Below are positions 62,747 through 63,100 of a DNA stretch of 64,000 nt, in pieces; the stretch's first letter is position 1, and every line of letters begins with the position of its first letter. Source of the stretch: Escherichia coli (GTDB lineage Bacteria > Pseudomonadota > Gammaproteobacteria > Enterobacterales > Enterobacteriaceae). The notes under the pieces were generated by a model. That model saw only the letters and a list, made by a program, of their open reading frames with translations, was not told the origin of the DNA and searched no databases. The stretch is taken from NCBI RefSeq assembly GCF_003790525.1, contig NZ_CP033635.1. One strand, 5' to 3'. The translations under genes were made by a program, and so were the position numbers.

Positions 62747-63100
62747 TCAATTCAGTTCTGTAAGACGATCGATTATTTTACGTAGTTCATCTGCAGAATC
62801 ACATGTATCCAGTGAAATTTTTATTCTAAAATTCTTTAACCAATTAGCAGCCTCCTGATCTTCACGCCATAAACGCTCCCCGCTCCAATCCCCCCTAAAA
62901 CATAGAGCAGCAATAGCCAATCCTCTGCATGCTGGCCGATTATGCTCAGATGTATTATTTTGGTTATAAAAATCGTTAATTCTTTCTACCGGAGATGATT
63001 TTATTTTATCCCACACATTGAAATTAGCTTTTTTCATCGTTTCAGCAGCAGCATTAGAAGCAAGCTTACCGAATCCCATTATAGCATCCCAAAATCCCAT
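62747..63100 (-). CDS. Hypothetical protein (117 aa)
   Basis: ORF on the same strand as its neighbours in the island; no recognisable motifs. Confidence 0.4.
   Translation of the reverse strand: MGFWDAIMGFGKLASNAAAETMKKANFNVWDKIKSSPVERINDFYNQNNTSEHNRPACRGLAIAALCFRGDWSGERLWREDQEAANWLKNFRIKISLDTCDSADELRKIIDRLTELN

Follow-up and report, generated by a model that had tools for sequence, protein, structure and literature searches.

The 117-aa open reading frame (ORF) at 62747..63100 of the minus strand is, judged by its substitution pattern, a genuine gene under purifying selection. It lies in the window, the 64,000-nucleotide stretch of Escherichia coli contig NZ_CP033635.1 that was analyzed. 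Its sequence relatives place it in a rare, unnamed family found in accessory regions of gammaproteobacterial mobile elements. The family is an unrecognized accessory attached to a known candidate defense gene, that of an EcsC-like protein, and is new to PADLOC, Pfam, NCBIfam, and PHROGs. The preferred reading, held tentatively and at a little under even confidence, is that the 117-aa protein is a non-enzymatic partner or accessory of a candidate defense or exclusion function, here together with the EcsC-like protein.

Coding status of the 117-aa gene

The ORF begins with ATG and contains 117 codons and a stop, exactly where a preliminary description made from the letters alone had placed it. 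RefSeq/PGAP names its product hypothetical protein (WP_000508154.1). The description was also right that the ORF sits between two zinc-ribbon copies, a fragment upstream and a full ORF downstream, and that it shares its strand with its neighbors; the outer-membrane protein (OMP) gene, the 117-aa ORF, the zinc-ribbon ORF, and the EcsC gene are all on the minus strand. The features of the region are the following:

58057..59250, (+), tyrosine integrase of the island; the same type adjoins the block in loci L006-L009 and L028-L033
59617..60672, (+), TPR protein of the island backbone, between the integrase and EcsC; Pfam TPR matches
61717..62373, (-), EcsC-family protein, 218 aa; Pfam EcsC 1.9e-11, PADLOC PDC-S29 6.4e-86
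62419..62436, (-), weak terminator-like hairpin between the zinc-ribbon ORF and EcsC; from a consensus scan only
62465..62656, (-), full zinc-ribbon ORF, 63 aa, CxxC-x17-CxxC; unannotated by PGAP
62747..63100, (-), 117-aa gene; ORF with dN/dS 0.08-0.41, alignment A3 of 19 sequences, AlphaFold2 model of seven helices
63104..63110, (-), Shine-Dalgarno-like AAGGTGA, 3 nt before the ATG of the 117-aa gene; read from the sequence
63137..63226, (-), truncated 5' zinc-ribbon fragment, 29 codons and then a stop; from tblastn and alignment A5
63313..64000, (-), outer-membrane beta-barrel (OMP) gene running off the window end; Pfam OMP_b-brl 2.9e-12, a 750-nt CDS in L001

Conservation and coding potential across related islands, a check that the description had proposed, gave a clear result. 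The window copy compared with five other alleles or clades has a dN/dS of 0.08-0.41, and dS is about 1.1-1.9, and saturating, between the most divergent copies. The rival explanation that the ORF is spurious, and that the DNA between the two zinc-ribbon copies is non-coding, is effectively refuted. Such a reading could appeal to the curated family libraries, which return no matches, and to the AT-rich island DNA around the ORF, where chance reading frames of this length do occur: 28 of 2000 shuffles (1.4%) of the 913-nt AT-rich block yield one of 117 aa or more from stop to stop. Purifying selection is, however, stronger coding evidence than ORF length by shuffling, and dN/dS lies far below 1 at high dS. 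Full-length homologs extend to about 27-32% identity in four genera and keep both motifs and length. The Shine-Dalgarno-like sequence, the confident structure prediction, and a third codon position that differs in GC from the first two (0.46, 0.42, and 0.26 for positions 1, 2, and 3) also argue against a spurious ORF, as does Rfam, which has 0 matches between 61500 and 63500. No notable repeats are found in that interval.

The block has a GC content of 35-38%, compared with 50.6% in the flanking core part of the window, and this difference points to horizontal acquisition. A promoter scan gives one strong sigma-70-like match on the minus strand, at 63078-63107 (GTGATA-18-TATAAT, extended TG, 10/12 matches). 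The site covers the first codons of the 117-aa gene. Its overlap with the start codon excludes a role as promoter of the 117-aa gene itself. It may serve the downstream genes as an internal promoter, or the match may be fortuitous.

A rare family of predicted helical proteins

The family is very small. When 1.84 billion representative proteins are searched exhaustively with HMMER, 15 match, including one low-complexity false positive, the 3072-aa repeat protein P0022. Those with names belong to E. coli, Acinetobacter (two clades), Pseudomonas putida, and Vibrio parahaemolyticus/alginolyticus, all Gammaproteobacteria. Contigs with family members number, for example, 410 in Vibrio and 179 and 193 in Acinetobacter. 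The clade with the DFYxQNN motif is present in 1 of 100,044 species-representative genomes, and the 117-aa gene is present in 24 of 5426 complete E. coli genomes. A tblastn search of plasmids finds one E. coli plasmid that carries the same block. The 117-aa protein has no tblastn match in 50,697 phage records, and a scan of viral contigs with the alignment of an Acinetobacter clade gives 0 matches.

Several damaged copies are also seen. P0005, P0006, P0009, and P0010 are frameshifted or truncated variants of the 117-aa protein. P0007 (46-51% identity; L005:932-1290) is apparently frameshifted near the C-terminus, with its conserved C-terminal helix in another frame (hmmsearch match at 1177-1290 of L005).

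The preliminary description saw no recognizable motifs. This holds for the curated libraries, in which Pfam, NCBIfam, and PADLOC contain nothing meaningful for the protein or for 19 members of its family (PADLOC has 0 matches to the protein at E up to 1) and PHROGs has 0 matches for five family members. An NCBIfam alpha-amylase model reaches 15 bits against a cut-off of 516 and is noise. The family alignment, however, does contain conserved motifs: an N-terminal MGF(W/F)D, R(L/I)xDFYxQNNT, RALAIAAL, and a C-terminal LRxAIDxL. Across the 19 sequences of A3, M1, F3, R40, D43, D81, L88, and R92 are invariant, and G2, K12, A14, W30, I110, and D111 are nearly so. The MGF(W/F) peptide together with the charged residues R40, D43, D81, and R92 probably mediates protein-protein or membrane contacts.

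The same description had drawn attention to Cys and Trp residues. There are indeed three Cys and five Trp, but the Cys and four of the five Trp are unconserved, even among E. coli alleles, and they do not form a motif. Membership of the zinc-ribbon family was considered and rejected, as C58, C67, and C100 are isolated, vary among E. coli alleles, and include no paired CxxC. A tblastn search with the zinc-ribbon query matches the flanking copies only and leaves the 117-aa gene unmatched.

Homology and structure prediction, the other check proposed, led to a rare family and to an all-helical AlphaFold2 model with no known fold. The model has seven helices, with a pLDDT of 78.6 and a pTM of 0.73. 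The protein is hydrophilic and soluble, has no transmembrane segment, and in most family members has a pI near 9.3. In alignment A3, none of the invariant positions is a His, Cys, or Ser, and a catalytic-type pattern is absent, which suggests a non-enzymatic binding protein. From sequence and model together, the 117-aa protein would be a soluble, non-enzymatic, all-helical binding protein.

Fold and profile searches of structural and sequence relatives give no mechanistic hint. Foldseek against the PDB and BFVD has a best E of about 0.8 (0.83 for BFVD), and a sequence-profile search of the PDB returns nothing beyond designed TPR and de novo helical proteins. The resemblance to TPR or alpha-alpha helical-hairpin repeats appears generic to helical hairpins, with no Pfam TPR match and Foldseek E of at least 0.8. 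No DNA-binding domain (HTH, RHH, or AbrB) is found by Pfam, NCBIfam, or fold search. An alignment of A3 with Acinetobacter JukA by hhalign has a probability of 0.1%, and the TerB-like neighbor of one homolog shows no similarity. PDC-S29 proteins match the Pfam EcsC model at positions 82-235 only, which raised the idea of a split EcsC N-terminal domain. The idea is unsupported, as none of the 19 family members matches Pfam EcsC at E up to 10.

Genomic neighborhoods in E. coli and other Gammaproteobacteria

The block is ordered 117-aa gene, zinc ribbon, EcsC in every fetched E. coli locus with downstream sequence. The gaps around the 117-aa gene are about 90 nt in the window. Gaps of this size, and the hairpin before EcsC, do not prove a single operon. 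The EcsC protein has a hydrophobic, glycine-rich segment, with Kyte-Doolittle windows of at least 1.6 starting from residues 76 and 87-89.

The three genes diverge congruently, with the zinc ribbon changing fastest. Relative to L002, the window is 99% identical in the 117-aa protein, 85% in the zinc ribbon, and 99% in EcsC. The corresponding values are 86%, 74%, and 89% for L006, and 69%, 32%, and 80-84% for the L003/L028 clade. Among 5426 complete E. coli genomes, counts by identity band are 9, 7, and 8 for the 117-aa gene and the same 9, 7, and 8 for chromosomal EcsC. On plasmids, nine EcsC genes of 65% identity lack a 117-aa gene, and a DUF2971 protein takes its place upstream. In strain RM8082 (L048, NZ_CP043825.1 4123815-4133991), ISEc8, an IS66-family element, truncates the 117-aa gene and leaves nt 170-346. 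The element removes the 5' half of the gene, and the EcsC ORF is nevertheless intact at 220 aa. In E. coli 23CRST013 (NZ_AP045773.1), three chromosomal places match the block, which indicates that the module or island is multi-copy in this strain.

The full zinc-ribbon ORF lacks a PGAP annotation in every E. coli record examined. It extends to a GTG start at 62686 in the ORF list (62465..62686); the ATG at 62656 is the likely true start because homologs begin there. The ORF is under purifying selection (dN/dS 0.27-0.40) and evolves faster than its neighbors, with 85% amino acid identity where they have 99%. Its homologs form two protein clusters in a 5.8-billion-sequence database, either nameless or labeled E. 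coli 'hypothetical protein'. In the 69%-identity E. coli clade, the second zinc knuckle is degenerate, reading CPVY in L028 and L003 (L028:5749-5964) and YPVC in L020 (L020:5714-5929). Only three Cys are left in this clade, so zinc binding may be lost or altered.

The upstream fragment at 63137..63226 is a pseudogene remnant. It has 58% protein identity over 24 aa to residues 11-34 of the full copy (tblastn E 1.5e-6). In alignment A5 (four sequences, mean column identity 74%), it follows the full zinc ribbon from the ATG to about codon 24 and then diverges. The L002 allele, which is 93% identical, has an earlier stop in the fragment. Among the loci in which the upstream region was read, the fragment occurs only in the allele of the window, L001, and L002, where the OMP gene is full-length or nearly so. 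In L003/L004 and L006-L009, the fragment is absent, and the OMP gene is cut to an N-terminal signal-peptide remnant that precedes the 117-aa gene.

The E. coli block and a tyrosine integrase gene point toward each other, and AraC, TPR, and MASE4-GGDEF genes usually separate the two. L020 and L028-L033 encode, at the same position, a TPR protein comparable in size to that of the window (346 aa; compared by length only). In these loci, AraC lies beyond the TPR gene, and MASE4-GGDEF lies between the TPR gene and EcsC. Both are absent from the window, where remnants of an ISAs1-family transposase (60774-61358, between the TPR gene and EcsC) take the place of the AraC and GGDEF genes of other alleles.

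The other side of the block holds variable cargo. This includes QatABCD, a type I restriction-modification system with an AAA_15 ATPase, a ResIII/DEAD helicase, and a phosphoethanolamine transferase with an MFS transporter. The cargo across L001, L002, L006-L009, and L028-L033 also includes sitABCD. The island is found at differing sites: after ycjD in the window, beside ulaE in L002, and elsewhere near dsbD/cutA or yqgH-speC-like genes.

Outside E. coli, the family is strongly associated with defense islands and prophage immunity regions. The Acinetobacter plasmid homolog P0172 is 32% identical and follows a gene for a 231-aa EcsC-like protein at a distance of 33 nt, and the zinc ribbon is absent. 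The 231-aa neighbor matches PADLOC PDC-S30 (1.8e-14), PDC-S29 (7e-14), and Pfam EcsC (7e-7), and is barely alignable with the E. coli EcsC protein (BLASTP E 0.2).

Members of the second Acinetobacter clade (P0143) are downstream of JukA/JukB in some contigs and always converge on a kinase-AAA (IetA/PD-T4-6-like)/HSP70/PspC cluster. The P. putida homolog adjoins PDC-M09A/B and BrxR. The Vibrio homolog is upstream of a WYL-TerB-PDC-M09A-like-PDC-M40B-like cluster, 337 nt from this next gene cluster. Pseudomonas prophage homologs are present in four IMG/VR contigs (L049-L052; 42-44% identity), on the opposite strand and located between SSB/exonuclease/Sak4-like recombination genes and a CI-like repressor. 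No EcsC gene is found within the 5-8 kb examined around the Vibrio, Pseudomonas, and Acinetobacter P0143 homologs.

EcsC genes themselves are widespread, with more than 2200 clusters of EcsC/PDC-S29 homologs in Proteobacteria and Firmicutes. The vast majority have no homolog of the 117-aa protein and have other upstream genes instead; the Aeromonas and Proteus examples have none beside them. On E. coli plasmids, the DUF2971 protein is 26 nt upstream of a PDC-S29-type EcsC gene (L047:3083-4512). In Aeromonas (L021:3252-4627), a 228-aa protein with weak, sub-threshold JAB matches is 62 nt upstream of EcsC. EcsC-like genes also occur in putative operons with the sensor gene jukA (Juk preprint, 10.1101/2022.09.17.508391). 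In the literature searched, PDC-S29 is listed as a candidate, with no report of anti-phage testing.

Possible functions of the 117-aa protein

In the window, the 117-aa gene leads a co-inherited block that lies in the part of the E. coli island backbone near the integrase. Under the tentatively preferred reading, its product would be the binding part, whether sensor, regulator, or adaptor, of a candidate function in phage defense or exclusion, and the membrane-associated EcsC-like protein may be the effector that works with it. The preliminary description had suggested a partner protein. That idea gains support here, although what recurs beside the gene is the EcsC-like gene (PADLOC PDC-S29) rather than the zinc ribbon. 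The strongest argument for a functional pairing is that the adjacency of P0172 and EcsC survives deep divergence and a changed gene order. The likeness to PDC-S29/PDC-S30 (EcsC family, Pfam PF12787) consists of co-inheritance in E. coli and adjacency in Acinetobacter; the 117-aa protein itself has no match. PDC-S29 is a single-protein model in PADLOC, so the 117-aa protein would be a lineage-specific accessory outside it.

The several different upstream partners of EcsC resemble an architecture of conserved effector and variable sensor, and this resemblance favors a non-enzymatic partner. Juk (jumbo-phage killer) is similar in having a small, non-enzymatic, helical protein beside a variable effector, and one clade of the family is just downstream of jukAB. 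The likeness is one of architecture alone, as the 117-aa protein has neither JukA homology nor a DUF3944 or Cbp3-like domain. Counting against the preferred reading, at least three clades have no nearby EcsC, and most EcsC genes have no such partner. A broader version is doubtful, though conceivable. In it, the family would supply the specificity or sensor subunit for EcsC-type membrane effectors. Two multi-gene anti-phage systems without an earlier description would follow, one formed in E. coli by 117aa-ZnR-EcsC and the other on Acinetobacter plasmids by EcsC-like-110aa; PDC-S29 and PDC-S30 would act as modular effectors whose sensors (this family, JukA, DUF2971, or JAB-like proteins) can be exchanged.

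The main rival, somewhat unlikely but the most serious one, holds that the gene is an autonomous, moron-like accessory of mobile elements, e.g., for superinfection exclusion, anti-defense, or modulation of host or phage proteins. The adjacency of the 117-aa and EcsC genes in E. coli could then be simple inheritance of the island backbone. Solitary copies fit this explanation well. The four Pseudomonas prophage contigs show typical moron placement, comparable to lambda rexAB or sieB-type genes in lying between recombination genes and a CI-like repressor. The Vibrio copy stands well apart from the next cluster, and in Acinetobacter the small gene persists whether or not JukAB genes flank it. The overwhelming absence of a 117-aa homolog beside EcsC genes and the neighbor gaps of about 90 nt in the window are likewise compatible with it. 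Unlike known prophage morons, the 117-aa protein has no sequence or fold similarity to PHROG or BFVD entries. Against this rival stand two deeply diverged clades (32%), each beside EcsC genes that barely align with one another, in different order and with a spacing of 33 nt in one case. EcsC-family genes are rare in genomes, so a chance recurrence of the adjacency seems unlikely, by reasoning rather than by a computed statistic. On E. coli chromosomes, the two genes moreover co-occur 1:1 by identity band.

An antitoxin or immunity protein, which would neutralize a toxic, membrane-active EcsC-like (or zinc-ribbon) protein until phage infection releases it, is improbable. The small, helical, non-enzymatic protein would suit this role, as it does type II antitoxins and polymorphic-toxin immunity proteins, and the hydrophobic, glycine-rich segment of EcsC is compatible with membrane activity. 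In E. coli the gene precedes the putative effector, whereas in Acinetobacter it follows after 33 nt; both orders are known in toxin-antitoxin and toxin-immunity pairs. Yet the co-occurrence with EcsC is not obligatory. More than 2200 EcsC clusters lack the partner, orphan copies stand alone without EcsC, and frameshifted or truncated copies exist. In RM8082, where the 5' half of the gene has been lost to ISEc8, EcsC is intact at 220 aa, although a polar loss of EcsC expression is possible there. The protein also differs from these classes in having no detected DNA-binding domain or known (Pfam) immunity family, and it is absent from PADLOC, which includes toxin-antitoxin-type defense models. 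The immunity-type role raised in the preliminary description is therefore not favored; the EcsC genes without a homolog, the stand-alone clades, and the RM8082 disruption all weigh against it.

If the pairing with EcsC is not functional, the 117-aa gene is one more conserved hypothetical on a mobile element. If it is functional, a new small-protein family would join the known accessory genes of defense islands and prophages. It would also provide a handle on the EcsC family, whose members are widespread defense candidates without a known mechanism. On that view, small partners that can replace one another would recruit EcsC proteins as modular effectors.
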